A DNA stretch of 52,980 bases from Bacteroidales bacterium (GTDB lineage Bacteria > Bacteroidota > Bacteroidia > Bacteroidales > S143-32), in NCBI GenBank assembly GCA_015489405.1, contig WFZU01000029.1, positions 1 to 52,980 of the forward strand, read 5' to 3'. A program made the position numbers and the translations under genes. Below are positions 25,196-42,049 of the stretch, piece by piece (positions within the stretch are counted from its first letter, which is position 1; the number at the start of each line of letters is the position of its first letter). The notes below the pieces were generated by a model. That model was not told the origin of the DNA, ran no database searches, and was given only the letters and a program-made list of their open reading frames with translations.

Positions 25196-26599
25196 TTATC
25201 CAATGTGAATGCCCGCATGCAGCGCAAGCCGCAAGAAAATAATCAAACCGAAAGTGGCAAGAAAGAGTTTTTTCTCAATCGTAATTCGCGGTTCTTCATC
25301 CATATCCGCAAAATACATGGGACCGAAGGACTTTATCATTCCAATCATAGGTATCAATACAATAAACACCCCCATGGACTTCAATATATCAAACCACATC
25401 TCATCAATCGTTTCAAAGTAAAAGTCCGAGGGTATTTTCATCAATATGATTATTATGGTACCAATAATCATCGGTGCAACGATTTGACTATTAACAAAAT
25501 ACTTTTTATTCTTGGCGTCAATGTATCCAAAATAATGTTGTGCGGAACTATAAAAACTCTTTGCCAACAAAGAGCCCAATGCGACCAAGGCAAATAAGCC
25601 GATAAAGGAATAAACCATCTTTCCGGTATCCATATAATACATATAGGAAATCACCCAGCCGAAGCCCTGTTCGAGCAAAGTCCCGAAAAATAAAGCCCCA
25701 AACATAGCATTTACCCCATGTACGGCACCCCATAAATAAAACAAGCGGATCAGCGTTCCTTTTTCGGAATACATGGAATAGAGCAAAATGAAAATGGCAC
25801 TCAACAGTATTCCCGTGAGCGGGATAATACTGAAAAGGATTTTTACGGCATCCATGGTCCACGCATCCACACTTATATCAAAGTAAAGTTTATTGTAAAA
25901 AAGGATTAGTTTATAGTCAAAATTCATTGAGACCAGAATGCGAATTAATTGTCCCAAAATAAATATCAGAAAATAGGATAGCAGAAACATACTCAATGAG
26001 TTGAGCATAATTGCGTAATAATTGCGCTTCTTTTCCCTGTCCTCCGGCACACCAAACATCCGTTTGATAGCATCTTTTACTTTCACCGGCGTCAAAGACC
26101 GCAAACCTATCCAAAAATGGAGAAGGCTACGTTTTACAAATACTTTTAACAGCCGCCTGCGCCGTTTACGGTTAAATTGTTTGAGTTTTTTCTCTTTCTC
26201 TTTTTGTTTTCTAATGTTCTCCCTTTCTATCCGGCGTTGTTCTTCCAGTCTTTTTTTGTATTCCAGCTGTTCTTTTTCTTCCTCTTCTTTATTGACAGCG
26301 GTTTTCTTCAAGACAAAAGCGGGTTTGCTTTCTTCTTCTTGGGGAAGCATCTGTAGTTGCTCCCTTTCCAAGGCAAGTTCTTCTTTTTCCCGTCTCCGCC
26401 TTAATCTTTCCTGTTTCCTTTCCAGTTCCTTTTGAAGTTTTAGTTTTCTTTTGGCTTCCTGCTCTTGCAGCCGGCGTTCCCGTTTTTCCTTCTTGATTTG
26501 CTCTTTGATTCTTTTTTTGATAATTCTCTTCTTATAACGCAAAAAACGCAAGCGTCTGTATATCTTGTACGTAGTGCTGTATGTTCTTTTTTGCTTCAT
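25196..26599 (-). CDS. Polytopic membrane protein with a roughly 150-aa Lys/Arg/Glu-rich N-terminal region (unknown function)
   Basis: The N-terminus is almost entirely K/R/E/Q (e.g. KKRIKEQIKKEKRERRLQEQEAKRKLKLQKELERKQERLRRRREKEE). About 7-8 hydrophobic helices follow. I recognise no family. Confidence 0.6.
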   Translation of the reverse strand: MKQKRTYSTTYKIYRRLRFLRYKKRIIKKRIKEQIKKEKRERRLQEQEAKRKLKLQKELERKQERLRRRREKEELALEREQLQMLPQEEESKPAFVLKKTAVNKEEEEKEQLEYKKRLEEQRRIERENIRKQKEKEKKLKQFNRKRRRRLLKVFVKRSLLHFWIGLRSLTPVKVKDAIKRMFGVPEDREKKRNYYAIMLNSLSMFLLSYFLIFILGQLIRILVSMNFDYKLILFYNKLYFDISVDAWTMDAVKILFSIIPLTGILLSAIFILLYSMYSEKGTLIRLFYLWGAVHGVNAMFGALFFGTLLEQGFGWVISYMYYMDTGKMVYSFIGLFALVALGSLLAKSFYSSAQHYFGYIDAKNKKYFVNSQIVAPMIIGTIIIILMKIPSDFYFETIDEMWFDILKSMGVFIVLIPMIGMIKSFGPMYFADMDEEPRITIEKKLFLATFGLIIFLRLALHAGIHIG

Positions 26600-26660: not shown

Positions 26661-27908
26661 TTAAACGGTCATTTTCACCATTTGCGACAAATCATATTCG
26701 TTATTTTTCAACTTTCTTTTTACTTCGGCGAATGCATTGACCGTATATTCCACATCTTCCATCGTGTGGGCAGCGGTAGGAATAAGGCGAATCATGATGA
26801 CCCCTTTGGGAACTACCGGATAAACCACAATCGACGTAAACAGACGATAATTTTCGCGCAAATCATAGATGATATGGGTAGCCTCGGGCAGTCCGCCGCT
26901 AAAATAGACCGGAGTAACCGGAGATTTCGTTTTTCCCAAATCAAAGCCTTGCGCTCTCAATCCACTTTGCAACGCATTGACAATTTTCCACAACTTATCT
27001 TTTTGAACATTGTCCCTGCGAATCATATCCAAACGTTTGAGGGCACCGATCACCATTGCCATAGGGAGGGATTTGGCAAACACTTGTGAACGCATATTAT
27101 ACATCAAGTATTTGATCAATTTCTCTTCTCCTGCGACGAAAGCGCCTATCCCCGCCATGGATTTGGCAAAGGTAGCAAAGTAAATATCCACTTGATCTTG
27201 CACTCCGAAATGTTCGTCTGTTCCGGCTCCGGTCGGTCCCATCGTCCCAAACCCGTGTGCATCATCGATGAAGAGTTTAAACTCATATTTCTCTTTCAAA
27301 CGGACGATTTCATCCAATTTTCCAAGGTCGCCTGCCATTCCGTAAACCCCTTCGGTAATGACAAGGACTCCACCGCCGTTTTCATCCGCTAATTTGGTAG
27401 CTCTTTGCAATTGTTTTTCGAGCTTTTCCATATCATTATGCGGGTACACAAAACGTTTTCCGAAATGTAATTGCATTCCGTCCAGGATACAGGCGTGAGC
27501 CTCCGAATCATATACGATTACATCCCTCCTGCTCACCAAAGCTTGAATGATGGAAACCATTCCCTGATAACCGAAATTCAGCAAATAAGCGGCAGGACGA
27601 TTGACGAATGCCGCCAATTCGGCTTCCAATTGTTCGTGATAGTCCGTATGACCGGACATCATCCGGGCACCCATGGGATAAGCTAATCCCCAATCTTTGG
27701 CAGCCTTGGCATCGGCTTCCCGTACTTCGGGGTGATTGGCTAAACCAAGGTAATTGTTAATGCTCCAATTAAGCATCTCTTTCCCCATAAACTCCATTCG
27801 CGGGGCAATCTCCCCTTTCAGTTTAGGAAAGGAAAAATAGCCGTGCGCATCATCCATGTATTGTCCCAAAGGACCTAAATTCTCTTCAAATTTTTTAAAT
27901 AAATCCAT
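26661..27908 (-). CDS. PLP-dependent alpha-oxoamine synthase family (serine palmitoyltransferase / KBL / BioF-like)
   Basis: Start moved to MDLFKKFEENLGP (ATG at 27908 verified). Family blocks are present: NNYLGLANHP, ITEGVYGMAGD, IDDAHGFG, and the PLP-lysine motif ATFAKSMAG. Substrate cannot be assigned from sequence alone. Confidence 0.8.
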   Translation of the reverse strand: MDLFKKFEENLGPLGQYMDDAHGYFSFPKLKGEIAPRMEFMGKEMLNWSINNYLGLANHPEVREADAKAAKDWGLAYPMGARMMSGHTDYHEQLEAELAAFVNRPAAYLLNFGYQGMVSIIQALVSRRDVIVYDSEAHACILDGMQLHFGKRFVYPHNDMEKLEKQLQRATKLADENGGGVLVITEGVYGMAGDLGKLDEIVRLKEKYEFKLFIDDAHGFGTMGPTGAGTDEHFGVQDQVDIYFATFAKSMAGIGAFVAGEEKLIKYLMYNMRSQVFAKSLPMAMVIGALKRLDMIRRDNVQKDKLWKIVNALQSGLRAQGFDLGKTKSPVTPVYFSGGLPEATHIIYDLRENYRLFTSIVVYPVVPKGVIMIRLIPTAAHTMEDVEYTVNAFAEVKRKLKNNEYDLSQMVKMTV

Positions 27909-27981
27909 ATGATAATTGTTTTGTTTTATGAGGGGGAATGAAAGGAAGACAAGTCCACCGGACAAACCACCTGTATTTTAA

Positions 27982-28859: not shown

Positions 28860-30746
28860 TCATTGCTTTCGCTTTCGACCGGAAAAATCAATATCCCAAG
28901 AACAGCGCAATTCATAATAACGCAATGGCATCGGATAGTAGGCTATCCATTGATAGTCCGCATTGAAAAGATTATTAACTTTAAAATATATCCGTAATTT
29001 GTGCCGGTGCAATTGCCACATTTTCGAAATAGATACGTCTGTAACATAGTGAGCAGGAAGAGAATAGCTATTGTCAGTTTTAGTAAAGAATGAAGAAGTA
29101 TAACGGCTTATGAGATGCAAACGGAATCCCCGGAAAGAAAGTACATTGGACAAAGACATTTGCAGCGGAGGGACGTAAGGCATCAGATATTCTTTGTTTT
29201 TGGCGAGCGTATAAGTCGTTTCCATACTCATACGGTAATCCCAACTACCGGACACATAGCGCCCCTCAATATGTGACTCCAAACCGCGGGAAATGACCTT
29301 CCCCAGATTGACCGGTCGCCAAACACCTCCCGAAGGCAACCATACGATACGTTCATCAAATGCGTAATAAAATGCCGTTACGTTCATTGCTATTCTAAAA
29401 CTTTTTCCCGCCTGCGGGCGGAAATTCATACCCAGTTCATAGTTCTTGGACCTTTCCGGCAGCAAGTGCTCGTTGCCCAGCGGCATCCAGTACAAATCGT
29501 TGAATGTAGGAAGGCGGTAATTGGTGGAAAAATGCAATTTCAAACGCAAGGAGTGGGAAATATTGACCGCCGAATTAAAGGAAAACAAGACCGGCGAGCG
29601 GGGCAAAACAAATTCTTTGGAAACCAGCAGGTTAGTTGTCAATCCGGTCGTTTGAATTTTAGCTCCGAGACGGGCGCCCCCTTGCCGTCTGCGAGGCGAA
29701 AGAGCATAATTGTTGCTCGAAGCCCACTCATACGTGTAATACAAGCCCGACAGAAGCGATATATAACGATTAAAAGCCCGGCTGACATTCAGATTATGCT
29801 GCCAAACCTTCGTCTGCATATATGAATCCACGGCCAATTGGGCGATACTGTCCGGATCGGCGTAATGCATCCCCGACCATAGCAAAGAAGATTGAAAACG
29901 CAATTGGAAAGCCTCCTTCAGATAGACATATTTTACAAAAAAACGGCGGTTGATTCCGGACTGCAAAGCATCGTTTGTGCTGCTTGTCAGAGATCCCGGC
30001 ACCTCTGACGCAATGCTGTCCAACCAAATTCCGGATTGGAAATATTGGTGTTCATCAATCCGGTAGCCCATATCTTGGATATAAGATATTTTCCGTTTGG
30101 CAGCGTGCTGCCGCAATCGAAGAATTTCGTGTAAATCGTAATAGGGAAACCTATTTTTATCATTGAATACCTCCAATTGCGAACGGATATAAAACTTTTT
30201 TCCACCCCTCCGGTAATTCAAAGCAGTCCGTACATTTTGAATGCTACTTATGGAAAGATTGCAGCCGAGCCGGTTTTCCGCTTTGAAGAGCGGCTTATTT
30301 GTCAAGAATACACCCCCGCTCATATTACCGGCTCCCAAGATAGCCGCACCGCCTCCTTGCTGCACACTGATTTCGTCAAAGGCACCTGCCGGCAAAGCGG
30401 ATATATCCAACATTCCCAGATTGGGCGAACGAAGCGGAATAGCATTCCAATAAATGACATTCTGATTAGCACCTAAACCTCTGAATCCCAGTGTGGAAAT
30501 AGCTCCCGGTCCATAACTTTTAACAAAGACCGAAGCCGATGTTTGCAAGAGTTCGTCCAGATTGTTTAAAGCATACTCTTGCATACGGATACGGTCAATA
30601 TTTCTAACATCCAATCCTTCCGAAAGCAAGGAAAGAGGAGTGTCCACAATCCGTATTTCGTGCAGGCGGATACTCGTGTCTGCTTCGTTTTGTGCAAAAA
30701 TAATCCAAGGAAAAAGCAAAAAGAATATGCCGGACAGAAGTCTCAT
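28860..30746 (-). CDS. TonB-dependent receptor, BtuB-sized (candidate cobalamin receptor)
   Basis: The ORF track start at 30755 is a TTG, so the ATG at 30746 is preferred (MRLLSGIFFLLFPWIIFAQ). Plug-domain blocks VFVKSYGPGAISTLGFRGLGANQNVIYWNAIPL are present, followed by a 22-strand-sized barrel. It is the last gene of a cobalamin-riboswitch operon. The C-terminus continues 7 aa (SGRKRKQ) past the usual terminal Phe. Confidence 0.8.
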   Translation of the reverse strand: MRLLSGIFFLLFPWIIFAQNEADTSIRLHEIRIVDTPLSLLSEGLDVRNIDRIRMQEYALNNLDELLQTSASVFVKSYGPGAISTLGFRGLGANQNVIYWNAIPLRSPNLGMLDISALPAGAFDEISVQQGGGAAILGAGNMSGGVFLTNKPLFKAENRLGCNLSISSIQNVRTALNYRRGGKKFYIRSQLEVFNDKNRFPYYDLHEILRLRQHAAKRKISYIQDMGYRIDEHQYFQSGIWLDSIASEVPGSLTSSTNDALQSGINRRFFVKYVYLKEAFQLRFQSSLLWSGMHYADPDSIAQLAVDSYMQTKVWQHNLNVSRAFNRYISLLSGLYYTYEWASSNNYALSPRRRQGGARLGAKIQTTGLTTNLLVSKEFVLPRSPVLFSFNSAVNISHSLRLKLHFSTNYRLPTFNDLYWMPLGNEHLLPERSKNYELGMNFRPQAGKSFRIAMNVTAFYYAFDERIVWLPSGGVWRPVNLGKVISRGLESHIEGRYVSGSWDYRMSMETTYTLAKNKEYLMPYVPPLQMSLSNVLSFRGFRLHLISRYTSSFFTKTDNSYSLPAHYVTDVSISKMWQLHRHKLRIYFKVNNLFNADYQWIAYYPMPLRYYELRCSWDIDFSGRKRKQ

Positions 30747-30751
30747 GGGAC

Positions 30752-31735
30752 TCAATATTTAAGCAATTTTATTGCGGTCTGCTTTTCACCGGAGAGTTTC
30801 AAGAAATATACGCCCGGAGACAAATAATGCAGATCTGTACGGCTGCCATTCGTAAGCATCAGCTCTTGCAACGAATTTCCGCTAACATCATAAAGGCGAG
30901 CCTTATACATTTCCCCGCCGGGCAAATAAAAACGTACAAAATCTTTCACAGGATTGGGCACCAAGGAAATCTCCGGCATAGTGCTCTCTCCCACCGCCGC
31001 ATTGTTTACATCGTGAATGACGCCCAAGGCATCTAAATCAAAGCCTCCTCCGGGGAAGGGAGTCGGAAAGGGATCGTTCACAATATTTCCTTGACTGTCA
31101 TAAGTGGCATAAGCACTGTCTATGGAACCGACCACATCCACGATAGCCACATCCGTGATATGCATCACATCCAAATCTTCCAAACCTTGCATTTCTTGTA
31201 AGTCAAAAGGAGTGCCGAAAAGCATACGGTATTTTCCCGCAAGATTATGTAGCAATGTGGCATCCAAGGTGTCAAATGTACCTACCTGGGTATTCGTCGG
31301 CGTCAGGGAGACCGACGGGAAACGAAAAAAATGTTCCCCGTCCGAACTCACTTCCACAAAAGCCAATTCCAAAAAACTATCACTAAATCCATTCTCAAAA
31401 ACAGCAAAATCAAAGCCTTCTCCGTCAGCCAGCGGGGGCTCAAAATGAAACAGGGCACGCCCTCCGTCTCCCAGACTCAACACGCTACCGTCCGCTTGTC
31501 CCAAGGCATCTTCCGGCTCTCCGTAACTCACAAGTCCCAGCGTGGTATCGGCAATATTTTGCCAAGAGGGAAAATATTGGCACTCGTCCGCCCAACGGAC
31601 AAAGACATTACTGTCTGCGGCAATGGCAGTAGAGCCTTCCTGCCCCGCCGGAGGAGCAAATTGCCCGGAGATGCTTTGCCCCCAAGAGAGCAAAGCAATC
31701 AGGCAAAGATGCATTATATATCTCCTTAACATCAC
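30752..31735 (-). CDS. T9SS C-terminal-sorting-domain protein, unknown N-terminal domain
   Basis: Signal peptide, then about 240 aa with no motif I recognise (FAVFENGFSDSFLELAFVEVSSDG). The C-terminus is a typical type A Por sorting domain (SLVPNPVKDFVRFYL...LSPGVYFLKLSGEKQTAIKLLKY). Confidence 0.75.
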   Translation of the reverse strand: MMLRRYIMHLCLIALLSWGQSISGQFAPPAGQEGSTAIAADSNVFVRWADECQYFPSWQNIADTTLGLVSYGEPEDALGQADGSVLSLGDGGRALFHFEPPLADGEGFDFAVFENGFSDSFLELAFVEVSSDGEHFFRFPSVSLTPTNTQVGTFDTLDATLLHNLAGKYRMLFGTPFDLQEMQGLEDLDVMHITDVAIVDVVGSIDSAYATYDSQGNIVNDPFPTPFPGGGFDLDALGVIHDVNNAAVGESTMPEISLVPNPVKDFVRFYLPGGEMYKARLYDVSGNSLQELMLTNGSRTDLHYLSPGVYFLKLSGEKQTAIKLLKY

Positions 31736-31758
31736 TGTTTTTGTATAAAGAGTAAAAG

Positions 31759-33420
31759 CTATTGTTTTATAAATTTACGGCTAATGTTTCCTGCGGAAGA
31801 ATAAATTTTGAGGAAATATACCCCGGGGCGTAAAGAAGACAGCGACAAGACGGCGAAGTCTGAGTCCGGCATTTCCATGCGAACACGTTCTCCTTGCAAG
31901 GAATATATTTCAATTTTTTGCATGTCTATACCACTGATTTTAAGCTGATTGACAACCGGATTGGGATATAATTCCACCTTTACGGAAGTTTCTGCAATGC
32001 CATTGGGGTCTAAGGCTGCTACGGGCACCTGCGGAGCTGTCGCCGGATTGAAGTCCGTCATCGAACATCCGAACCACGCACCATCCTCCAACTCCGTTGA
32101 GATTCCCATATTCATTGCCCAGTCCGGCGTACTCTCTCCGGACCAAGTGGACCAATACAAACCTGCTTGGCTTCCCGCATGCGTAAACGTTGCGGATTCA
32201 TACGCCAGCGATGAGAGAAAACCACCACTCATATCTGCTGAAAGACGTTCATCTGCATTCACAATTTCATTGATCATATCTTCGGCGGTTGCCGTGCCGT
32301 CCCAACGGTATCCCCAAGCCAAGGCTTCCGGCTCCACGCCATCGTTCCAATCCACGACAAAGAGCGCTTGTTTGCTACCACTTCCAACCCAATATTGGAC
32401 ATCGTCGAAAGTGAAGTCCGCACGAATATCCAACAGCAATGCTTCGGTAGAGATACCCGCCTCAAAACTGCCGATATTTTCGCCTGCGGCGGAATAAATA
32501 AAGCCATCACCGGAGGACATATAATCTGTTTCCGCTACATAGAAACGCTCGTTCAACGAATCATAGACAGCAGCGGAAATGCCCGAAGTAGCCGGCGCCA
32601 CAATATTTTCATCCGTTACGCTTTGACCGGACAAATCGAAAGAAGCGATATTTCCATCCAACAACAGGTAAAGCGTATTTTGGTGTCTGTCCAATCCCTT
32701 TCCGACGACGTGGGACAAGACGGTGGTCGTTGCTTCTGCGGTCGTAGGATCATACGTACTGATAGAACCGGTCGAAGCGCCCCAGGGAGTACGGTTGACC
32801 GAATAGATTTTTCCGTCATAGACGAACAAATCAAAAATGCCTACTGCATCCGTTCCCAGATTATCTTCGCGCACCAATTGATAGTTGTTATCGATGACAG
32901 CCAATTTTCCTTCGGTTCCTGCCCAGCCGCCATTCACGGCGACATAGAGCGTATCGCCTGCCATAACCAGATCAGCCGCATCGCCCGACATTCCTTCGAC
33001 ATCTGCCACCCAGGAAAGTCCGGACGTTTCAAACACCCGTACATATACTCCATCTTCGGGGCTTATCCAGCGGCTGGCATACAATTTTCCGTTATCAACA
33101 AGCAATTGGTTCACATTGCTGCAAGCCACTATCGCCAAACGTTCTTTTGTATCCACATCATATTTGGCAATAGAATCCTGAGCCGCCACATACAGATTGG
33201 AACCCTCCAAGACCATATCTTGAATGGACTCCGTATTCACGCCTCCGAAAACGACCGTCGTATCTTGCACAGGCTGATATGCCGCAAGGCTAAGGTGATC
33301 GTCCGGATTTCCATAGACTCCGCCGGAACCGATCAACAACTGATTGACAAATTGCTGTGCATGGCTTTGCATACTTACCGCAAATATTAACACCAGGATA
33401 AACAAGTAATTTTTTTTCAT
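31759..33420 (-). CDS. T9SS C-terminal-sorting-domain protein: repetitive beta-propeller-like N-terminal region plus a Trp-rich middle domain
   Basis: Signal peptide MKKNYLFILVLIFAVSMQSHAQ. Repeated LYVA/YVAV/IYSV strand motifs spaced about 40-50 aa apart suggest a propeller. The middle domain reads WGYRWDG...LYWSTWSGE...LEDGAWFGCSM. The C-terminal Por sorting domain is VELYPNPVVNQLKI...LRPGVYFLKIYS. It is the first gene after the cobalamin riboswitch. Confidence 0.75.
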   Translation of the reverse strand: MKKNYLFILVLIFAVSMQSHAQQFVNQLLIGSGGVYGNPDDHLSLAAYQPVQDTTVVFGGVNTESIQDMVLEGSNLYVAAQDSIAKYDVDTKERLAIVACSNVNQLLVDNGKLYASRWISPEDGVYVRVFETSGLSWVADVEGMSGDAADLVMAGDTLYVAVNGGWAGTEGKLAVIDNNYQLVREDNLGTDAVGIFDLFVYDGKIYSVNRTPWGASTGSISTYDPTTAEATTTVLSHVVGKGLDRHQNTLYLLLDGNIASFDLSGQSVTDENIVAPATSGISAAVYDSLNERFYVAETDYMSSGDGFIYSAAGENIGSFEAGISTEALLLDIRADFTFDDVQYWVGSGSKQALFVVDWNDGVEPEALAWGYRWDGTATAEDMINEIVNADERLSADMSGGFLSSLAYESATFTHAGSQAGLYWSTWSGESTPDWAMNMGISTELEDGAWFGCSMTDFNPATAPQVPVAALDPNGIAETSVKVELYPNPVVNQLKISGIDMQKIEIYSLQGERVRMEMPDSDFAVLSLSSLRPGVYFLKIYSSAGNISRKFIKQ

Positions 33421-33679
33421 ACAACTAATTTTTTAAATTTCTATTTAATTCCTACTTCGTTCTCTAATCACATTTTTACGTGTATTCGCCGGCGAAAATT
33501 CCGGAGCAAAAATATCACCTATCCAACATTACGGTAGCTTATCATCCGAGAATCCCCGGAGGCAAATCTTCACAAACTACACACGCCCATAAAATCAATA
33601 AAAAAACTCACAAGGCAAACAAAATAAAACGCTAAGAGCATCCAATTTCAACTTTTCACCCGAAAGTTTTGAAATTTAC

Positions 33680-33845
33680 ACTTCTGGCAGGTCTTCTGAC
33701 TTTCCTCGATGTTGCCGGTGCCTTCCCATCCTCTATTCCGGACAGTGGCGTGGAAAACAACACTTTTTATACGAGGTACACAGCAGCGGGTACTGTTGCC
33801 GATTTTCACGGCATTCCCATTTTAAGCAGCATGCACCAAAAATGT
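33680..33845 (-). promoter_or_regulatory. Cobalamin (B12) riboswitch
   Basis: The minus strand reads GGTGCATGCTGCTTAAAATGGGAATGCCGTGAAAATCGGCAACAGTACCCGCTGCTGT...CACGCCACTGTCCGGAATAGAGGATGGGAAGGCACCGG...GAAAGTCAGAAGACCTGCCAG. These are the conserved AAnnGGGAA, GTGAAAATC, CCCGC-GCTGT, B12-box GCCACTG...GGGAAGGC and AGTCAGnAGACCTGCC elements of the cobalamin riboswitch, in the right order and spacing. Confidence 0.9.
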
Positions 33846-33849
33846 ACGG

Positions 33850-33857
33850 CAAAAGTA
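33850..33857 (-). promoter_or_regulatory. Candidate -7 promoter box (TACTTTTG) driving the riboswitch operon
   Basis: The reverse complement of CAAAAGTA matches TAnnTTTG and lies immediately upstream of the riboswitch 5' end. Confidence 0.5.
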
Positions 33858-33942
33858 ATTCTTTTTTCAAAAAAACAAATACTTTTGTAAAAATTTATTT
33901 GGCTAACAGCCGGAATAATAAACGTATAAAAAATTTAGCTTT

Positions 33943-34445: not shown

Positions 34446-37400
34446 ATGAAGAAACTGATTATTCTCAATTTTGTTTTTCTTTTCTGTGCATCCGTTTCAT
34501 TAGTACAAGCACAACGCTATTCCGTACAATTGAAGTGGAATACCATCCAAATAGACAGGGCAAACGGCACCCCGCAAAAAATACTGAGCTTTCAAGATGC
34601 TTCCTACGAAGAAGGCTCTGATCTTCCGGTATTTTACAAGCGTATTCCGGTCGCTCCCGGACTTCGTTACCAAGCCGATATCACACATATCCGCTACGAA
34701 CCTGTCTTTGACGAGTCTATGCTCTCAAAATTGAAGGATAAGGCGAAGAATCAACTTGCGGTCAAAACCTACACCGCCCAAGCCGGCAAGGAGACCTTTC
34801 TTATCGTGGAATTTCTTCCTTTCGTAAAGGACCCTGCCAGCGGTTTTATCAACAAAGTTGTTTCCTTTGATATTCGTCTCCGGTCAAAAGGCGCAAAAGA
34901 CCTGCAAAAAGGCAAGAAATATGCAGAAAATTCGGTTCTTGCGCAAGGCGATTGGTACAAAATATCGGTAAACAACACCGGCATCTATAAATTGACTTAT
35001 TCCGATTTGCAATCTTTGGGAATAGCGGTGAGCAGTATCAATCCGCAACAGTTGAAAATCTACGGGAACGGGGGCGGAATGCTACCGGAGGATATTACGG
35101 CACCGAGATATGACGACTTGCAAGAGAACGCTATTTACGTTTACGGTGAAGAGGATGGCGTTTTTAATGAAGGAGACTACATTTTGTTTTACGGCAAGGG
35201 ACCCGACACTGAAATGTATTCGTTAGACGGGAATTTCAGCTATCAAAAAAATATCTATACCGGTGAGGTTGATTATTTTATCACCGTCAGTGAGGGAGCC
35301 GGCAAACGCATCGGCATTCAAGCACAAAGCACGGCCGCGGCTACATACACCGTAAACAGCTACGACTATCTCTATCATCACGAATCGGAAGAATACAATC
35401 TTAACCGTTCCGGAAAGATGTGGGTAGGAGAAAAATTTGATTTTACGACCTCCTATGAGTTCCCCATTGACATTCCCAATCTTGATCTTAATAGCCCCGT
35501 GGAATTGAAATTCAATCTGGCAGCACAATCCAAAACGGTCAGTCAATTCAGTTTCTACATCAACAACTCTTTTTTAACGTCCAAAACGGTCTCTAAACTA
35601 CCCGGCGGTGCCTTTGGCGATGTCGGAACTATTGCCAGCGGCACCAAAACGTTCGATGCTCCGGGCAACAATTTTACACTGAAAATAGAATATATTAAAC
35701 CCCTCTCCACTTCCGTCGGTTATTTGGACTTCTTCTCGCTCAAAACTATCTGTCATCTGCAATTCGGGAGCGGACAACTTCCGTTTCGCAGTATTGCCGG
35801 CGTGGGCGAAGGAAATGTCAGCCAATTTGAAATCAGCACCGCAAATCCGGACTTGCGCATTTGGGATGTAAGCGATCCGCTTAATGTTCAACAGCAAGAT
35901 TTTAACTTTGCCGGCGGGAAAGCTCAATTTAAACTTGCCACCAATCATTTACATGAGTTTGTAGCTTTTGACGGGAGCGCTTTCCTGCAAGCGGGGCTTA
36001 TCGGAAATGTCCCCAATCAAAATTTGCATGCCGTTAGGGACAAGAATATGATCATCATCAGCTATCCTGATTTTGTCAATCAAGCAGAACGTCTGGCAAA
36101 TTTCCATGCTACAAAAGACAATTTTAGTACGGCTATCGTTACACCGCAACAAATCTACAACGAATTTAGCAATGGCGTACAAGACGTTACCGCTATCCGT
36201 GATTTCTTGAAGATGGTGTTTGATAATTCCATTTCCGGCACTCCCCTGCAATACGTCCTCCTTTTCGGAGATGCTTCTTATGATTACAAAGGCATCCTTT
36301 ATCCCCATGCAAATCTCGTACCCGTCTGGGAAAACGCCGACAGTCCGATGAGTCAAACCGTCTCCTACGCTACGGATGATTTCTTTGCCCAACTAACAGA
36401 CGATGACTTGCTGGATATATCCTTGGGACGCTTCCCTGTCAATACGCCGGATGAAGCAAAAGATGCGGTGGATAAAACTTTTAACTACGTCAATAAAAGC
36501 AAAGAGGTCTTCGGAGACTGGCGCAACGTATCTTGTCTCATAGCCGATGATGAAGAAGGTGGTTTGTTTGTCAACCAATGCGAAGAATTAGCGGATATTA
36601 TTGCCCAAAAAGACAGCACTATCAATATCGATAAGATCTATTTGGATGCCTACCAACAAGAAGCAACTCCTTCCGGACAACGTTATAAAGACGTAGAAGA
36701 CGCTATTAGCCGGAGGCTCAGTAAAGGAACCCTCATCCTAAACTATGTAGGACACGGAGGGGAAGCCGGATGGGCACATGAAAGGATTGTCAAAATCAGT
36801 GATATTGCCAACTGGGACAATACCTACCGGCTCCCTCTCTTTATCACGGCTACTTGCGAACTGACCCGTTTTGACAATCCCGGAAGACTTTCCGCCGGAG
36901 AATTGATGTTTACCAATCCTAAAGGTGGCGCCATTGCCCTTTATACGACCACGCGTCCTACTTTCGGCGGTGCCAATCACGCGTTGAGTAAAAGAATATA
37001 CACCAACGCATTACAAAAGTTTGATGGAGAACAACTTAGTATGGGAGAGGTATTGCGCAAATCCAAAAACAATACCAAGAAAGGAATCAATAGTTTCAAG
37101 TATGTTTTTGTCGGAGATCCGGCTATCAAACTGGCTCTTCCCGGACAAAAGGTAAATGTTACGGAAGTCTCGGTGGACACTATCAAAGCCCTTGCCTATG
37201 TGCAAATTCACGGCAATGTGAGCAACGAAGCGGGAGATGTTTTTAATGATTTCAACGGGGAAGCAGACATTAAAGTTTTTGACAAATTTGTCAATTACAA
37301 AACCTTGGGCAATGACCCCAACAGTCCTATTGAAACTTTCCAAGAACAAGACCACGTAATTTACAATGGAAAAGCCAGTGTCATCAATGGAAAATGGCAA

Positions 37401-38201
37401 GTGGATTTTATCGTCCCCAAAGACATCATTTATGCTTATGGAATGGGAAAGATAAGCCTTTACGCACACAATGATGAATTTGATGCTGCCGGCTATCAGG
37501 ATATTGTAGTCGGAGGTATTCAAGAAGGGGGCATCGCAGACGACACTCCCCCCGAAGTTCAGATTTCCATTAATGACTGGTTGTTTGAAAACGGAGGGGT
37601 TACCAATGAAAACCCCATTATGCTTGCCAAGACGTATGACGAAAGCGGCATCAACACCTCCGGTTCGGGCATAGGGCACAATCTTGAGCTAACTTTGGAC
37701 AACACTAAAACCTTTGTCGTAAATGACTTCTACGAAACCGAATTGAATGATTTTACACACGGACACATCACCTACCCTCTTTACGGACTGTCTGACGGAC
37801 CTCATACGATGACCCTGCGTGTTTGGGATGTTTTCAACAACTCCAACACGGCAAGCATTGATTTTATCGTGGTGCCATCGCAACAAATGGCAATTAAATA
37901 TCTCATGAACTATCCCAATCCGTTCTCTTATGCGATGGGAACTCATTTCAGTTTTCAGCATAATCAATCGGAGGATCAGATCGATGTGGAACTCCAAATC
38001 TACTCCACTTCCGGACGCTTGGTAAATATCATCAAAGACTTCTCGGAAGGAGGAAATTACGTGTATAAGTCCGGTGCTTGGGATGGGAAAGACATGAACG
38101 GTAATCTTATCAAAAGCGGCACCTACATCTATAAATTGGTAGTCCGCAATGCCGCCGGAAAATATGAGACGGCTACCAGCAAGCTGGTTTATATTCGCTA
38201 A
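34446..38201 (+). CDS. porU: PorU-like C25-family cysteine peptidase (T9SS sortase family), paralog 1
   Basis: 1251 aa with a signal peptide. The propeptide-like block is GIYKLTYSDLQSLGI...IYGNGGGMLPE. The C25 catalytic dyad context is LNYVGHGGEAGW (His) and LFITATCELTRFD (Cys). The C-terminal beta-sandwich/CTD-like end is YPNPFSY...GTYIYKLVV. The symbol is assigned on family resemblance only. Confidence 0.7.
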   Translation: MKKLIILNFVFLFCASVSLVQAQRYSVQLKWNTIQIDRANGTPQKILSFQDASYEEGSDLPVFYKRIPVAPGLRYQADITHIRYEPVFDESMLSKLKDKAKNQLAVKTYTAQAGKETFLIVEFLPFVKDPASGFINKVVSFDIRLRSKGAKDLQKGKKYAENSVLAQGDWYKISVNNTGIYKLTYSDLQSLGIAVSSINPQQLKIYGNGGGMLPEDITAPRYDDLQENAIYVYGEEDGVFNEGDYILFYGKGPDTEMYSLDGNFSYQKNIYTGEVDYFITVSEGAGKRIGIQAQSTAAATYTVNSYDYLYHHESEEYNLNRSGKMWVGEKFDFTTSYEFPIDIPNLDLNSPVELKFNLAAQSKTVSQFSFYINNSFLTSKTVSKLPGGAFGDVGTIASGTKTFDAPGNNFTLKIEYIKPLSTSVGYLDFFSLKTICHLQFGSGQLPFRSIAGVGEGNVSQFEISTANPDLRIWDVSDPLNVQQQDFNFAGGKAQFKLATNHLHEFVAFDGSAFLQAGLIGNVPNQNLHAVRDKNMIIISYPDFVNQAERLANFHATKDNFSTAIVTPQQIYNEFSNGVQDVTAIRDFLKMVFDNSISGTPLQYVLLFGDASYDYKGILYPHANLVPVWENADSPMSQTVSYATDDFFAQLTDDDLLDISLGRFPVNTPDEAKDAVDKTFNYVNKSKEVFGDWRNVSCLIADDEEGGLFVNQCEELADIIAQKDSTINIDKIYLDAYQQEATPSGQRYKDVEDAISRRLSKGTLILNYVGHGGEAGWAHERIVKISDIANWDNTYRLPLFITATCELTRFDNPGRLSAGELMFTNPKGGAIALYTTTRPTFGGANHALSKRIYTNALQKFDGEQLSMGEVLRKSKNNTKKGINSFKYVFVGDPAIKLALPGQKVNVTEVSVDTIKALAYVQIHGNVSNEAGDVFNDFNGEADIKVFDKFVNYKTLGNDPNSPIETFQEQDHVIYNGKASVINGKWQVDFIVPKDIIYAYGMGKISLYAHNDEFDAAGYQDIVVGGIQEGGIADDTPPEVQISINDWLFENGGVTNENPIMLAKTYDESGINTSGSGIGHNLELTLDNTKTFVVNDFYETELNDFTHGHITYPLYGLSDGPHTMTLRVWDVFNNSNTASIDFIVVPSQQMAIKYLMNYPNPFSYAMGTHFSFQHNQSEDQIDVELQIYSTSGRLVNIIKDFSEGGNYVYKSGAWDGKDMNGNLIKSGTYIYKLVVRNAAGKYETATSKLVYIR

Positions 38202-38299
38202 AACAGATTCATTATGTCTATTGACAATTGAAAAGTAATAACCGCCGGATGACAAAGAAATATTTTACTATCTTTGCATCCGGTTTTTATGGCAAAAAT

Positions 38300-41200
38300 A
38301 TGAAACAAAAATATATTTTCCTTTTATTTCTTTTCATCGGGGGCTTACAGTCCGTTTTTGCCCAAGAAGAGAAGACTATTACGACTGAATTTCACTGGAA
38401 CGGAGTGCAGCAAGCGGGCGGTATCCCTTTTCTCTCTTGCGAAGAAGCCCAAGACCTCACGCCGGAGGGACTTCCGGTGTACGCTCTTGTTGAAGCCGGA
38501 GAGGCTGCCGGCATATCCGTTTCTTATACGATAAAAGCATTTTCCCCCCTTAGCGAAGAAGAGAAAGCATTCGTCTCATCGATAGAACTTCCTGCTTTTC
38601 ATATTGAGAAAAAGCTCCGTCATTTTCGCAAACAAGCCCGTTGGGTCATCTCTTTCATCCCTTTGGCTATCAACGAAAAAACGCACCAATGGGAAAAGAT
38701 ACGTTCCATAGAAATAAAGATTCAAACTGAGCCGGACACCAAATCTCCCATTCACCAACAAATAAACTATGCCGAACAGTCCGTACTCCGGCAAGGAACC
38801 TGGCATAAAATATCCGTGGATACCACCGGCATATTCAAAATTTCGTACCAAGATTTCGTGGACTATGGCATAAATCCGGACGATATTGTGCCTGAAAATA
38901 TACGGATTTTCGGTAACGGCGGACGCAATATGCCGGAAACTCTTTCGTTACCGCGGGAAGATGATTTAAAAGAGCTCTCCATTGACGTGGAAGACGGTAA
39001 TGACGGTTCTTTTGACCCGGGCGATTTCGTTTTGTTTTACGCCACAGGTCCGGAAAACAGGGACTTCGTCAATCAGGAATACTATCGCTATTCACCTAAT
39101 ATTTATACCCGGAAGTCCTACTATTTCTTGACCCTCGATCAAGGTAGCGGTCTTCGTATTCCTACCGATGACACCCCCCTTACACCTACGGACACCATCA
39201 ACAGTTTCCCGGATGTTCTCCACTATGAGGTAGATGAAGAAAACCTTATAGCCTCCGGCAAAAGGTGGTACGGACATGCGTTGGGCGAAGGCGAATCCTT
39301 AAATTTTACGATGCACCTGCAAAATCCTGTCCCCAATACGGAATACCGGATTGAATATGCGCTGGCAGCACGCATCTTTTCCAATGGGAAAGTGGCTTTT
39401 ACAATCAACCAAAATGTGGGTGACAGCAATATTATCTTTTTCAAACCGAACCTTTTCAAAGTAGCTCACAGGCATGAGAAGCATTATTCTTTTCCGCTCA
39501 CTTCAGAAGATCTCAACTTCTCTTTTTTCTGCCTGCCCAACAATCCTTCATCCAAAATATGGTTTGATTATTTGACGCTTACCTATCAAAGACAATTAAT
39601 TTTTGATTCCGGAGCGATGCAATTTATTGATTTTGCCAAAGAGGGCAACAAACGTTCACTTTTCCGGATACAATCCCCACCGGATGCCGGCGTATGGGAT
39701 GTCAGTACTCCCAATGCTCCGGTAGCTATTCAGACCGCATACGACGATGGAATACTCTCTTTTGTCCGGCAGATTAACAATACAAATACATTTGTGATAC
39801 TGGACAAGGGCGCTTCTTTTCCACATCCTCATTATGAGTCTCCCGTTACTCCCCAAAATATCCATGCGGCAGCGACAGCGGATATGGTCATAGTAGCTCC
39901 GGAAGCATACCTTCCGCAAGCGCAACGATTGGCGGATCTCCATGCTGCTAAAGACGGATTGAGTTGTCTCGTGTTGAGCGACCAAAATGTCTATAATGAG
40001 TTTTCTTCCGGGAAAATGACCCCTGTTGCCATCCGGAATATGATGAAATTTTTCTATGATAAATACCCGGACAACTATCCTAAATACTTGCTGCTTATGG
40101 CAGACGGAAGTTATGATTACAAAGGAATATTGGGCACAACCGAAAACCAAATCCCCCCTTTTGAGACCCTGCAATCGCTTATGAAAACGAACTCTGTTGT
40201 GATTGAAGATTTTTTCGGTTGTCTGGATGATGACGAAGGAGACGACGGGGAGGGTATTGTGGATATTGCCACCGGCAGAATGTGTGTTTCCTCTTATGAG
40301 CAGGCTAAACAGATGGTTGACAAAATAGAGAAATACATGAATGACAGTGAAATATGCGGAGATTGGCAGCGTAAAATATGCTTTATTGCGGACGACGAGG
40401 AAGGCAACCTGTTCCTGTCGCAAGCTGACACCATAGCAGTTCGTACCCGGAGAACAAATCCGGATATAGAGAATGTAAAAATCTATTTTGACACATATCA
40501 ACAACAGCAGACCCCTAATGGAGACCGGTATCCGGACGTAAATCAACGTATCAACCAAACCATAGACCGGGGTGCCCTGATTGTTAATTATATCGGTCAT
40601 GGTAGTGAAATAGGCTGGTCGGAAGAGCGCGTCTTGGATATTTCGATGATTAATTCGTGGAACAACAACCGCTATCCTCTCTTTGTAACGGCTACGTGCG
40701 AATTTAGCAAATTTGACGATGTCAATAAGATTTCCGGAGGCGAACTCACATATCTCAATCCTCATGGTGGTGCTATTGCCATGATTACTACGTACCGCTT
40801 GGCTTGGGCAGGCGCCAATAACATTCTGAATAAAAAGTTTTTTAACAATCTTTTCAATATCCAAGACAATAATTTTCTCAGACTTGGCGACATTTATATT
40901 TTATCCAAGAATGTAGGAGCTACGAGCCGTAAAAATATCGGCATACTCGGTGACCCGGCGCTTCGCCTTGCGCTGCCCTCCTACCGGATAAAAGATTTTA
41001 CGATAAGCAATCAAACTGCTCTTGATACGCTGCAATCGTTGATGGAAGTAAATTTTGAAGCAAAAGTTTATGACCTCAATGATAATTTTATGCAGGATTT
41101 TAATGGAAATGCCGAAATACAACTTTTTGACAAGAAACAAAAAATCCACACATTGGGGAACGATTCGCCGGAATTAAAGACGACCTACTACGTACAAAAT

Positions 41201-42049
41201 ACCCTGTTGAACAAAGTTATTGTTCCGGTAGATTCGGGAACTATTTCAGGCTCCATCTTTGTCCCCTTGGACATGGAACAAGAATACGGACAAGGATTGT
41301 TCAGACTGTTTGCCAAAGACGGAGGCAAAACGGCTATGGGCTCCTTTGATGATTTTATGCTCGGCGGCACCGATGCCGACGCAAGCATTGACAACACTCC
41401 CCCCGCAATTTCCTTGTATATCAATGATAATAGCTTCCGGAATGGGGATACGATTTCGAATGAAGCTGTTCTGTTGGCAAATTTGAGCGATGAGCATGGA
41501 ATAAATATTTCCAATCAAGGATTAGGGCATGACCTCTTTATGTACATTGACGATGATTTCGGAAACCCCATTCTGCTTCCGGACTATTATCATCCGGAAT
41601 CCGGCGCTATCTGTTGCGGCTCTGTAACTTATGCTTTGGAGCAGTTGGAAACCGGACAACATACGATACAGCTCTTTGCCTGGGATAACTACAATAACCG
41701 GGGCAGTGCAAATATCTCTTTCTATTTCCTGAAAGAAAAAGAAATTATCAGAAATAGAATTTACGTTGCTCCCAACCCCTTGGAGCAATCTACAAGTTTT
41801 TATTTTTCCGATGCGCCGGACTACGAAAACTTTGATATACAGCTGTTTATCTACGACTTGAACGGCAAAGAACGCTACCGCTACGAAAATTCCGTATTTA
41901 CCCTACGGGGAGATTATAAGTTGTTCTCTTGGGACGGCAGGGACCTGCAAGGACATCGCTTGCCTGCGGGAGTATATCTCTATTATGCTATCATCCGTGA
42001 TGAATTAGGGCATCGCTTCATCCAATCTCAAAAAATTATTGTCCGTTAA
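38300..42049 (+). CDS. PorU-like C25-family cysteine peptidase (T9SS sortase family), paralog 2
   Basis: The ORF track start at 38228 is a TTG. The ATG at 38300 gives the signal peptide MKQKYIFLLFLFIGGLQSVFAQ. It is collinear with paralog 1 (GIFKISYQDFVDYGI, IFGNGGRNMPE, YDYKGIL, IADDEEGNLF, VNYIGHGSEIGW, LFVTATCEFSKFD, GDPALRLALP, DNTPPAI) and has a CTD-like end (VAPNPLEQSTSFYF...GVYLYYAII). Confidence 0.7.
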   Translation: MKQKYIFLLFLFIGGLQSVFAQEEKTITTEFHWNGVQQAGGIPFLSCEEAQDLTPEGLPVYALVEAGEAAGISVSYTIKAFSPLSEEEKAFVSSIELPAFHIEKKLRHFRKQARWVISFIPLAINEKTHQWEKIRSIEIKIQTEPDTKSPIHQQINYAEQSVLRQGTWHKISVDTTGIFKISYQDFVDYGINPDDIVPENIRIFGNGGRNMPETLSLPREDDLKELSIDVEDGNDGSFDPGDFVLFYATGPENRDFVNQEYYRYSPNIYTRKSYYFLTLDQGSGLRIPTDDTPLTPTDTINSFPDVLHYEVDEENLIASGKRWYGHALGEGESLNFTMHLQNPVPNTEYRIEYALAARIFSNGKVAFTINQNVGDSNIIFFKPNLFKVAHRHEKHYSFPLTSEDLNFSFFCLPNNPSSKIWFDYLTLTYQRQLIFDSGAMQFIDFAKEGNKRSLFRIQSPPDAGVWDVSTPNAPVAIQTAYDDGILSFVRQINNTNTFVILDKGASFPHPHYESPVTPQNIHAAATADMVIVAPEAYLPQAQRLADLHAAKDGLSCLVLSDQNVYNEFSSGKMTPVAIRNMMKFFYDKYPDNYPKYLLLMADGSYDYKGILGTTENQIPPFETLQSLMKTNSVVIEDFFGCLDDDEGDDGEGIVDIATGRMCVSSYEQAKQMVDKIEKYMNDSEICGDWQRKICFIADDEEGNLFLSQADTIAVRTRRTNPDIENVKIYFDTYQQQQTPNGDRYPDVNQRINQTIDRGALIVNYIGHGSEIGWSEERVLDISMINSWNNNRYPLFVTATCEFSKFDDVNKISGGELTYLNPHGGAIAMITTYRLAWAGANNILNKKFFNNLFNIQDNNFLRLGDIYILSKNVGATSRKNIGILGDPALRLALPSYRIKDFTISNQTALDTLQSLMEVNFEAKVYDLNDNFMQDFNGNAEIQLFDKKQKIHTLGNDSPELKTTYYVQNTLLNKVIVPVDSGTISGSIFVPLDMEQEYGQGLFRLFAKDGGKTAMGSFDDFMLGGTDADASIDNTPPAISLYINDNSFRNGDTISNEAVLLANLSDEHGINISNQGLGHDLFMYIDDDFGNPILLPDYYHPESGAICCGSVTYALEQLETGQHTIQLFAWDNYNNRGSANISFYFLKEKEIIRNRIYVAPNPLEQSTSFYFSDAPDYENFDIQLFIYDLNGKERYRYENSVFTLRGDYKLFSWDGRDLQGHRLPAGVYLYYAIIRDELGHRFIQSQKIIVR

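Follow-up and report, generated by a model that had tools for sequence, protein, structure and literature searches.

A cobalamin riboswitch operon encoding two type IX secretion cargo proteins and a BtuB-like receptor: a probable extracellular B12 capture module in Bacteroidales

The question raised by contig WFZU01000029.1 of a Bacteroidales bacterium (assembly GCA_015489405.1), analysed over its 52,980 nucleotides (nt) and referred to below as the 53-kb window, is whether vitamin B12 may be captured outside the cell by proteins delivered through a type IX secretion system (T9SS). Riboswitch-controlled BtuB receptors working with the corrinoid-binding surface lipoproteins BtuG, BtuH, BtuJ and BtuK are established in Bacteroides (PMC10404256, PMC8941943, PMC12751083, PMC13616437, 10.1101/2025.07.01.662609). 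In the window, a cobalamin riboswitch precedes three genes, termed A, B and C, which encode two proteins with T9SS C-terminal sorting domains (CTDs) and a BtuB-like receptor. We consider it likely that this operon serves as an extracellular capture module, regulated by B12 and dependent on the T9SS, which feeds the receptor. An initial annotation, made from the sequence of the window, had proposed T9SS-anchored B12 capture, and the results support it as a T9SS variant of the Bacteroides BtuB/BtuG system in which sorting domains replace lipid anchors: the CTDs occur without lipoboxes, A is of BtuG type, C is BtuB-like, PorU genes adjoin the operon and the linkage recurs in other genomes, while anchoring and binding would follow by prediction. 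None of the observations named beforehand as refuting the proposal was made; the riboswitch match is strong, and the predicted structure of A matches BtuG. The features are as follows (aa, amino acids).

28860-30755, minus strand: gene C, 631 aa from TTG, or 628 aa from ATG at 30746
30752-31735, minus strand: gene B, 327 aa from GTG; codon 2 is ATG
31759-33420, minus strand: gene A, 553 aa
33591-33668, minus strand: expression platform, delimited by leader comparison
33669-33855, minus strand: cobalamin riboswitch aptamer RF00174, delimited by covariance model
33850-33879, minus strand: promoter, -33 box TTTG (33879-33876) and -7 box TACTTTTG (33857-33850)
Parts of gene A: signal peptide, aa 1-22; propeller, aa 24-333 (nt 32422-33351); DUF4430-related domain, aa ~335-470 (nt 32011-32418); CTD, aa 482-553 (nt 31762-31977)
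Parts of gene B: signal peptide; all-beta domain, aa 25-250 (nt 30986-31663); CTD, aa 257-327 (nt 30755-30967)
34446-38201 and 38228-42049, plus strand: two tandem PorU paralogs (context, outside the operon)

The initial annotation had listed a cobalamin riboswitch at about 33680-33845 on the minus strand, a TAnnTTTG box directly upstream of it, about 260 nt between aptamer and ATG, and three tightly packed minus-strand genes separated by 23 and 5 nt, and this layout was recovered in each respect. The A-B gap is 23 nt and the B-C gap 5 nt, or an overlap with the TTG start of C; the database version of gene B starts 7 codons further in and encodes 320 aa. RF00174 was the sole Rfam match above the gathering score in the 53-kb window; it reached 93.8 bits where 31.5 is required (E 4e-22) and covered the full model (positions 1-189 of 189). 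The B12 box of the aptamer, AGUCAGAAGACCUGCC, is present, and the aptamer scores 151 bits with R1, a covariance model built in this analysis. The boxes TTTG and TACTTTTG (TAnnTTTG), read from the sequence as the Bacteroidetes -33 and -7 boxes, lie directly 5' of the aptamer and abut it, and the promoter stretch is identical in the closest relative, locus L082. The predicted transcription start is placed at about 33845, at the 5' edge of the P1 helix of the aptamer.

The distance from aptamer to ATG was found to be about 248 nt in the window and in L082, compared with about 100-120 nt in 18 relatives with A-type operons, the window leader being about 140 nt longer than those of the 18 related operons between the conserved platform elements and the start codon. 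The first ~75 nt 3' of the aptamer differ by one mismatch between window and L082, and the remaining leader (33421-33590) has diverged. A 6-codon open reading frame (ORF), ATGGGCGTGTGTAGTTTGTGA (33590-33570), lies about where the start codon of the relatives falls. The expression platform was compared by alignment of 20 A-type leaders. A hairpin with a UUCGGG loop occupies about 33670-33650, the UUCGGG being invariant in all 20, and a long-range helix formed by AAAGCUUUCGGG and CCUGUGAGUUUU is conserved across them; in the window its counterpart is AAAACUUUCGGGUGAA (33670-33655) paired with UUUGCCUUGUGAGUUUU (33619-33603). In most relatives there is also a hairpin, GUUUUGAGGUU...AACCUUAAAAC, whose formation is mutually exclusive with this pairing; behind it comes a U-run, and 5-8 nt separate the end of this run from the AUG. 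The window leader retains the UUCGGG hairpin, the long-range helix and a U-rich tract (33606-33591). As read from the alignment, the arrangement in the relatives is built like a terminator or sequestor paired with an anti-terminator, and by analogy B12 would repress the operon, which would set the direction of switching. Scans for intrinsic terminators and sigma-70 promoters gave background levels only.

With regard to the encoded proteins, signal peptides without a lipoprotein Cys and Por/T9SS type A CTDs on both accessory proteins, a propeller-like repeat pattern in the 553-aa protein, no placeable motif in the 327-aa protein and a TonB receptor of BtuB size had been noted. The translations bear out the first point. 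Protein A begins with a Sec-type signal peptide, MKKNYLFILVLIFAVSMQSHAQ followed by Q, which has neither a lipobox nor any Cys, and protein B with another, MMLRRYIMHLCLIALLSWGQSISG followed by Q, in which the sole Cys lies inside the hydrophobic core and not after a lipobox. Both CTDs exceed the cut-offs of TIGR04183 (A, 49.7 bits, residues 484-553; B, 39.3 bits, residues 260-323; cut-off 23) and of PF18962 (A, 42.2; B, 29.9; threshold 27), and the modelled CTD of B superposes on 8glk_D with a target template modelling (TM) score of 0.81.

The two PorU paralogs (1251 and 1273 aa) are full-length, tandem and divergently placed immediately upstream of the B12 operon. Both contain Peptidase_C25 and score 1231 and 1066 bits with NF033707 against a cut-off of 420. 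Since two PorU sortases adjoin the operon, the host possesses the processing enzyme for type A CTDs; the remaining core genes of the T9SS are located outside the window. L082 has PorU at the same place, then a further ORF cut at the locus end. From these sequence features, A and B would be exported by the T9SS and anchored at the surface. Further along the contig, on the minus strand at 48640-52260, lies another cargo gene of this system; its 1206-aa product combines Sortilin/BNR repeats and a PKD domain with a T9SS type A CTD.

Sequence searches with the N-terminal 480 residues of A gave no match in Pfam, NCBIfam or the PDB sequences, the CTD alone being matched. The AlphaFold2 model of the protein, computed on a 45-sequence alignment, reached a mean predicted local distance difference test (pLDDT) of 86.7 over the whole protein. 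It contains 28 strands arranged as seven blades of four (residues 24-333), an alpha/beta domain at about residues 340-455 and then the CTD, so that the repeat pattern noted at first corresponds to a seven-bladed propeller. In a Foldseek search against the PDB, ranks 1-13 were all of the BtuG family (E 1e-16 to 8e-15, target TM 0.73-0.78). They include 3dsm, 8okv, 8bmz, 8bmx_D, 8bai, 8bmy, 8bn0 and 8p97_B, of which 8okv is BT2095 solved with cyanocobalamin, 8bmz, 8bai, 8bmy and 8bn0 are BT1954/BtuG2, and 8bmx and 8p97 are BtuG chains of BtuB-BtuG complexes; several of these structures were solved with cobalamin bound. The next match after rank 13 was a generic YVTN propeller (E 3e-13, TM 0.51).

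A hidden Markov model (HMM) of the A propeller picks up CTD-less DUF5074 proteins whose genes follow that of the receptor in related loci. Its best match extends over the full length (L034_6329, E 8e-15, in a small database of ~5,000 ORFs), and the DUF5074 identity of these matches was confirmed by Pfam. DUF5074 proteins that carry a CTD also exist in related loci (L039, 57 bits). The Pfam family concerned, PF16819, is described as a beta-propeller family co-located with DUF4465 and BtuB (PMC13398666). An hhalign comparison of the A alignment with one DUF5074 sequence was uninformative. On the strength of the Foldseek ranks and the DUF5074 matches of the propeller HMM, A is judged, from model and profile, to carry a divergent BtuG-type propeller.

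For the middle domain of A, the model predicts a beta-beta-beta-alpha-beta5 topology, with an N-terminal extension that bears a conserved WVGxG...AWGYR motif. Its profile finds 247 proteins, many of which pass the Pfam DUF4430 threshold inside the A-homologous region (in P0373, A-middle profile at 101-213 and DUF4430 at 147-214; in P0392, 24-138 and 80-139), and hhalign gave 99.7-99.8%. DUF4430 (PF14478) itself found no match in the window domain and weak matches in 2 of 19 aligned relatives; the link is transitive, because the window protein lacks a DUF4430 match of its own. In B12 binders of the transcobalamin type, DUF4430 forms the C-terminal domain (PMC4350170). Elsewhere the A middle domain is found on its own before a CTD, as two or three copies in tandem, again before a CTD, and fused to the B domain. 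A relationship of the middle domain or of B to the C-terminal B12-binding domain of BtuH, known from the solved BtuH2, was considered and rejected: profiles searched against all PDB sequences gave no support at E <= 10, and BtuH was absent from the whole-chain Foldseek top 50 of A and of B.

Receptor C consists of a Plug (PF07715) and a TonB-dependent barrel (PF00593), the family of Plug and 22-strand barrel, in keeping with the BtuB-sized receptor named at first. Its sole matches among PDB sequences at E <= 1e-3 are Bacteroides thetaiotaomicron BtuB structures (BtuB1-3: 8p97, 8p98 and 8bmx_C, E 7e-37 to 4e-36, and 8blw). The BtuB equivalog models stayed below their cut-offs (TIGR01779, 61.9 versus 599.7 bits; NF007926, 38.4 versus 836); both models are presumably centred on proteobacterial BtuB. 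C is therefore regarded as a BtuB-like receptor of the Bacteroides type rather than an ortholog of the Escherichia coli type.

The 225-aa N-terminal domain of protein B, in which no motif could be placed at first, has indeed no relatives in Pfam, NCBIfam or the PDB, and sources give its family only the name 'T9SS type A sorting domain-containing protein'. The model of B (pLDDT 88.1) shows an all-beta domain. The family is large: its matches number at least 7,990 clusters at 90% identity, and among representatives at 50% identity there are 1,854 at E <= 1e-3 and at least 1,433 at E <= 1e-10. Identity of B across sampled loci is 51-63%, compared with 24-29% for the binders or the receptor. The B domain is fused in one polypeptide to DUF4465 (P0251; L037, L050, L072), DUF4430 (P0253, P0319) or the A-middle domain (P0064, P0066), and P0194 contains it twice in tandem. 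A relationship to DUF4465/BtuJ (PF14717) was rejected on the absence of a Pfam match, an hhalign value of 0.45% and the presence of both as separate modules in P0251. No DUF4465, BtuH or BtuG was found in the Foldseek top 50 of whole-chain B; DUF4465 structures were present in the PDB sequence set searched.

Outside Bacteroidota, the B domain carries PEP-CTERM tails (P0303, P0332) and the A-middle domain PEP-CTERM or dockerin tails. Proteins from outside this phylum that contain one or the other domain (P0303, P0332, P0389, P0067-P0072) have PEP-CTERM and/or dockerin repeats, and some sources name the carriers Phycisphaerae or Pirellulales. The tails differ between phyla; the same extracellular modules are therefore mounted on different anchoring systems.

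Conservation of the operon was followed through gene B. A scan of GTDB species representatives yielded at least 573 relatives, and 80 loci with an intact B gene were analysed, spanning Bacteroidales, Flavobacteriales (including the cultured Mesonia ostreae and Mariniflexile gromovii), Chitinophagales and one metagenome-assembled genome (MAG) of Chlorobiota. RF00174 was found in 7 of 9 B loci tested, and a covariance model was then built from Rfam-positive B loci and run across the loci. A cobalamin riboswitch lies upstream of B in 61 of the 80, always on the strand of B; in about 10 of the other 19, the contig breaks off shortly upstream of the cluster. A BtuB-like receptor lies within 6 kb of B in 54 of the 80 loci.

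Several arrangements recur. In 22 loci (type 1) the riboswitch is followed by a propeller, with the middle domain in some, and CTD, then B, then the receptor, sometimes with a CTD-less DUF5074 protein behind it. In 25 loci (type 2) a DUF4465 protein with CTD takes part, the order being riboswitch, DUF4465+CTD, B and receptor, or riboswitch, receptor, DUF4465+CTD and B; these DUF4465 partners match the solved B12-binding DUF4465 structures 9hmu, 9fct and 9i2l (E 1e-36 to 3e-14). Type 3 consists of riboswitch, one to three middle domains with CTD, and B. Further types comprise B and receptor only, or a riboswitch directly 5' of B (L081, L076). Taken together, the linkage to riboswitch and receptor, the types of partner and the fusions assign B to the cobalamin regulon and to the outside of the cell, a placement by sequence that does not thereby show its role there.

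In rumen and gut Bacteroidales, the gene before B encodes two or three tandem DUF4430-related domains with a CTD. Four such genes lie directly behind a cobalamin riboswitch (L016, 5379-7004; L024, 5379-7004; L052, 5659-6918; L061, 5814-7004), and no receptor was detected within 6 kb of these four loci. In L015, where the B homolog has no cobalamin riboswitch, an FMN (flavin mononucleotide) riboswitch (RF00050, 122 bits; 11799-11926, plus strand) is situated some 4 kb downstream of it.

From these data the following course may be proposed. At low intracellular cobalamin the leader would adopt its permissive fold, and A, B and C would be made from one transcript. C, as a BtuB-like receptor, would insert into the outer membrane, while A and B would cross the inner membrane via Sec, have their type A CTDs recognised and be carried over the outer membrane by the T9SS. 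PorU would remove the CTDs, leaving A and B displayed on the surface or partly released. A would capture corrinoids with its BtuG-type propeller and probably also with its transcobalamin-beta-like DUF4430-related domain. B, the most conserved member of the set, might partner the receptor in a further step of corrinoid binding or hand-off, and the cargo would pass to BtuB for TonB-driven import. The riboswitch, the order of the genes, their domains, the T9SS signals and a linkage conserved across about 80 genomes are observed; from them we infer the binding of B12 by A and B, their anchoring at the surface, the hand-off to C and the logic of the off-switch.

The proposed module shares with the BtuB-BtuG loci of B. 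thetaiotaomicron the cobalamin riboswitch, a BtuB of Bacteroides type, a seven-bladed propeller of BtuG fold and extra extracellular proteins in the operon. In contrast to those loci, the accessory proteins of the window are not lipoproteins, and both have type A CTDs. Because of these domains, any tether of A or B would be at the C-terminus, with a polarity opposite to that of an N-terminal lipid anchor. The window operon further differs in that it does not include btuFCD and that no B. thetaiotaomicron counterpart of the B family was identified. A resembles the BtuGH chimera of B. thetaiotaomicron (PMC13616437) in being a propeller fused to a second putative B12-binding module; in A this module is DUF4430-related and not a BtuH domain, and A has a T9SS tail. 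DUF4465/BtuJ (PF14717, IPR027828) is comparable insofar as a DUF4465 protein with CTD fills the position of A beside B in sister operons, whereas the window itself has no DUF4465 domain and B is no relative of it. To the beta domain of transcobalamin and intrinsic factor (DUF4430) the middle domain of A is linked via intermediate sequences, but it has no alpha-barrel partner and occurs alone, in tandem, or with T9SS, PEP-CTERM or dockerin tails. The surface haem acquisition proteins of Porphyromonas gingivalis are a case of T9SS-dependent nutrient capture. They too are type A CTD cargo on the surface serving nutrient uptake beside a TonB-dependent receptor; the ligand class is another, the protein families are unrelated, and riboswitch control is a feature of the window operon.

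We know of no mechanistic work on surface B12 capture in Bacteroidota other than that from Bacteroides, where lipoproteins are used and the T9SS is lacking. The T9SS route of vitamin capture had been held at first to be undescribed, and literature on the T9SS together with BtuG/BtuH, cobalamin riboswitches or B12 contained no description of a T9SS-delivered B12 capture system. We take IPR026444 to be the T9SS C-terminal sorting domain and IPR013424 to be PEP-CTERM. Among 824 DUF4465 proteins, 229 carry IPR026444 and 88 carry IPR013424, reported as 'C-terminal extracellular targeting motifs' (PMC12751083). Because of that sentence on domain co-occurrence, the claim stands in a weaker form: the route is not wholly unnoticed, though unstudied. 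To our knowledge and within the literature searched, neither a BtuG fold in T9SS form, nor a DUF4430-related module in such a setting, nor the B family has been described.

A number of points weigh against the operon being a T9SS-dependent B12 capture module. The reading is built entirely from sequences and predicted structures. Protein A matched neither DUF5074 (PF16819) nor DUF4430 in Pfam even at E 0.1, so its links to both rest on fold prediction and family profiles. The B domain found no sequence relative in Pfam, NCBIfam or the PDB with family profiles to E <= 10, and whole-chain Foldseek of B returned generic jellyroll-plus-Ig matches with TM <= 0.31; by sequence, B is without detectable similarity to any known B12 binder. 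In the leader alignment, the start-proximal hairpin usual in the relatives is missing from the window leader, and the minimum-free-energy fold of that leader does not stand out thermodynamically (z -0.26). The rest of the 53-kb window yielded no btuFCD, no further binder and no canonical BtuG lipoprotein. No RF00174 was found in 10 B loci with ample upstream sequence. Proteins with type A CTDs can be released instead of anchored. Lastly, BtuL of B. thetaiotaomicron is riboswitch-regulated, yet binds no cobalamin (PMC12751083, PMC13616437), and a member of such an operon therefore need not bind B12.

This last precedent leads to the question of what B does. B might be a non-binding, structural or accessory component of a B12 uptake operon, such as an adaptor docking to BtuB, a receptor lid or a vesicle or envelope factor like BtuL, a possibility we take seriously as the main alternative for B while holding it somewhat doubtful. 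It would account for the lack of resemblance of B to known B12-binding folds or families, for the recognisable binder (propeller, DUF4465 or DUF4430-like) that nearly always accompanies B, and for its high conservation relative to binders and receptor, which is typical of fixed protein-protein contacts. Such a role fits poorly with loci that have B and the receptor only or a riboswitch directly 5' of B alone (L081, L076, L011, L054, L058), and with the repeated fusion of B to B12-binding modules and its tandem duplicate, which are typical of ligand-binding modules. The PEP-CTERM-anchored B domains occur in phyla without a T9SS, so B is not T9SS-specific machinery. On balance the arguments for and against binding or transfer of corrinoids by B itself appear evenly matched. 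Even weight is likewise given to a broader proposal, that the B domain is a new and widespread extracellular class for corrinoid binding or transfer, a core BtuB partner in those environmental and gut Bacteroidota that bear a T9SS, with versions anchored through PEP-CTERM in other phyla, and that the whole multi-protein B12 relay of the Bacteroides lipoproteins would be run there via the T9SS.

The fate of A and B after export could also differ from the anchored state: both might be released by the T9SS as soluble 'cobalophores', hemophore-like, scavenging at a distance and returning corrinoids to BtuB. Nothing in the sequence distinguishes anchoring from release, and many type A CTD substrates of Flavobacteriia are found in the culture supernatant; in Porphyromonas, however, PorU-dependent attachment to anionic lipopolysaccharide is the default fate of such cargo. 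Vesicle-borne BtuJ, which extends the capture range of B. thetaiotaomicron, shows selection for capture at a distance (PMC12751083), whereas BtuG, the structural relative of A, is a cap stably bound to BtuB (PMC10404256). Release of this kind is considered unlikely. Far less credible, and disfavoured here, is the view that A and B have nothing to do with B12 and are T9SS cargo of an ordinary kind, for instance adhesins or proteins that bind glycans, which merely lie between riboswitch and receptor. Beta-propellers and jellyroll sandwiches are generic folds, and the best Foldseek matches of B are modules of carbohydrate-active enzymes. This view is contradicted by the recurrence of the linkage from Bacteroidales to the Chlorobiota MAG, by best PDB folds of A that are specifically BtuG, by the fusions of B to DUF4465 and DUF4430 and by the close packing of the genes (5-23 nt).

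If the operon does capture B12 through T9SS cargo, its bearing is wider than one genome. In communities of the gut, the rumen, the sea and fresh water, scavenging for B12 is a force that shapes competition, and the window locus with its ~80 relatives suggests that most other Bacteroidota solve B12 capture with T9SS cargo. Vitamin acquisition would thereby be a physiological role of the T9SS, with the prediction that T9SS mutants are starved of B12. The B family, very large, strongly conserved and unannotated, is a target for a new B12-binding fold or a new principle of receptor docking.

The genes downstream of the operon, all on the minus strand, were examined as well. A 216-aa Tll0287-like protein (PF11845; 27982-28632) with a lipoprotein-type signal, LSSCG, and a haem-c-like motif, CLKCH, is encoded 228 nt downstream of the receptor gene. 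It was rejected as a member of the system at this distance; it is syntenic neither in any of 81 related loci nor in L082, and is therefore probably unrelated to the operon. A 467-aa ORF (25196-26599) has a low-complexity N-terminal part of ~170 residues extremely rich in Lys, Glu and Arg, followed by a polytopic membrane domain, and matched nothing in Pfam or NCBIfam. Between the two lies a pyridoxal phosphate-dependent acyltransferase of the BioF/Kbl/serine-palmitoyltransferase group (26661-27965). Its best match is the Bacteroidota serine palmitoyltransferase model, at 304 bits and below the cut-off of 640 bits; it is possibly a gene of sphingolipid synthesis.

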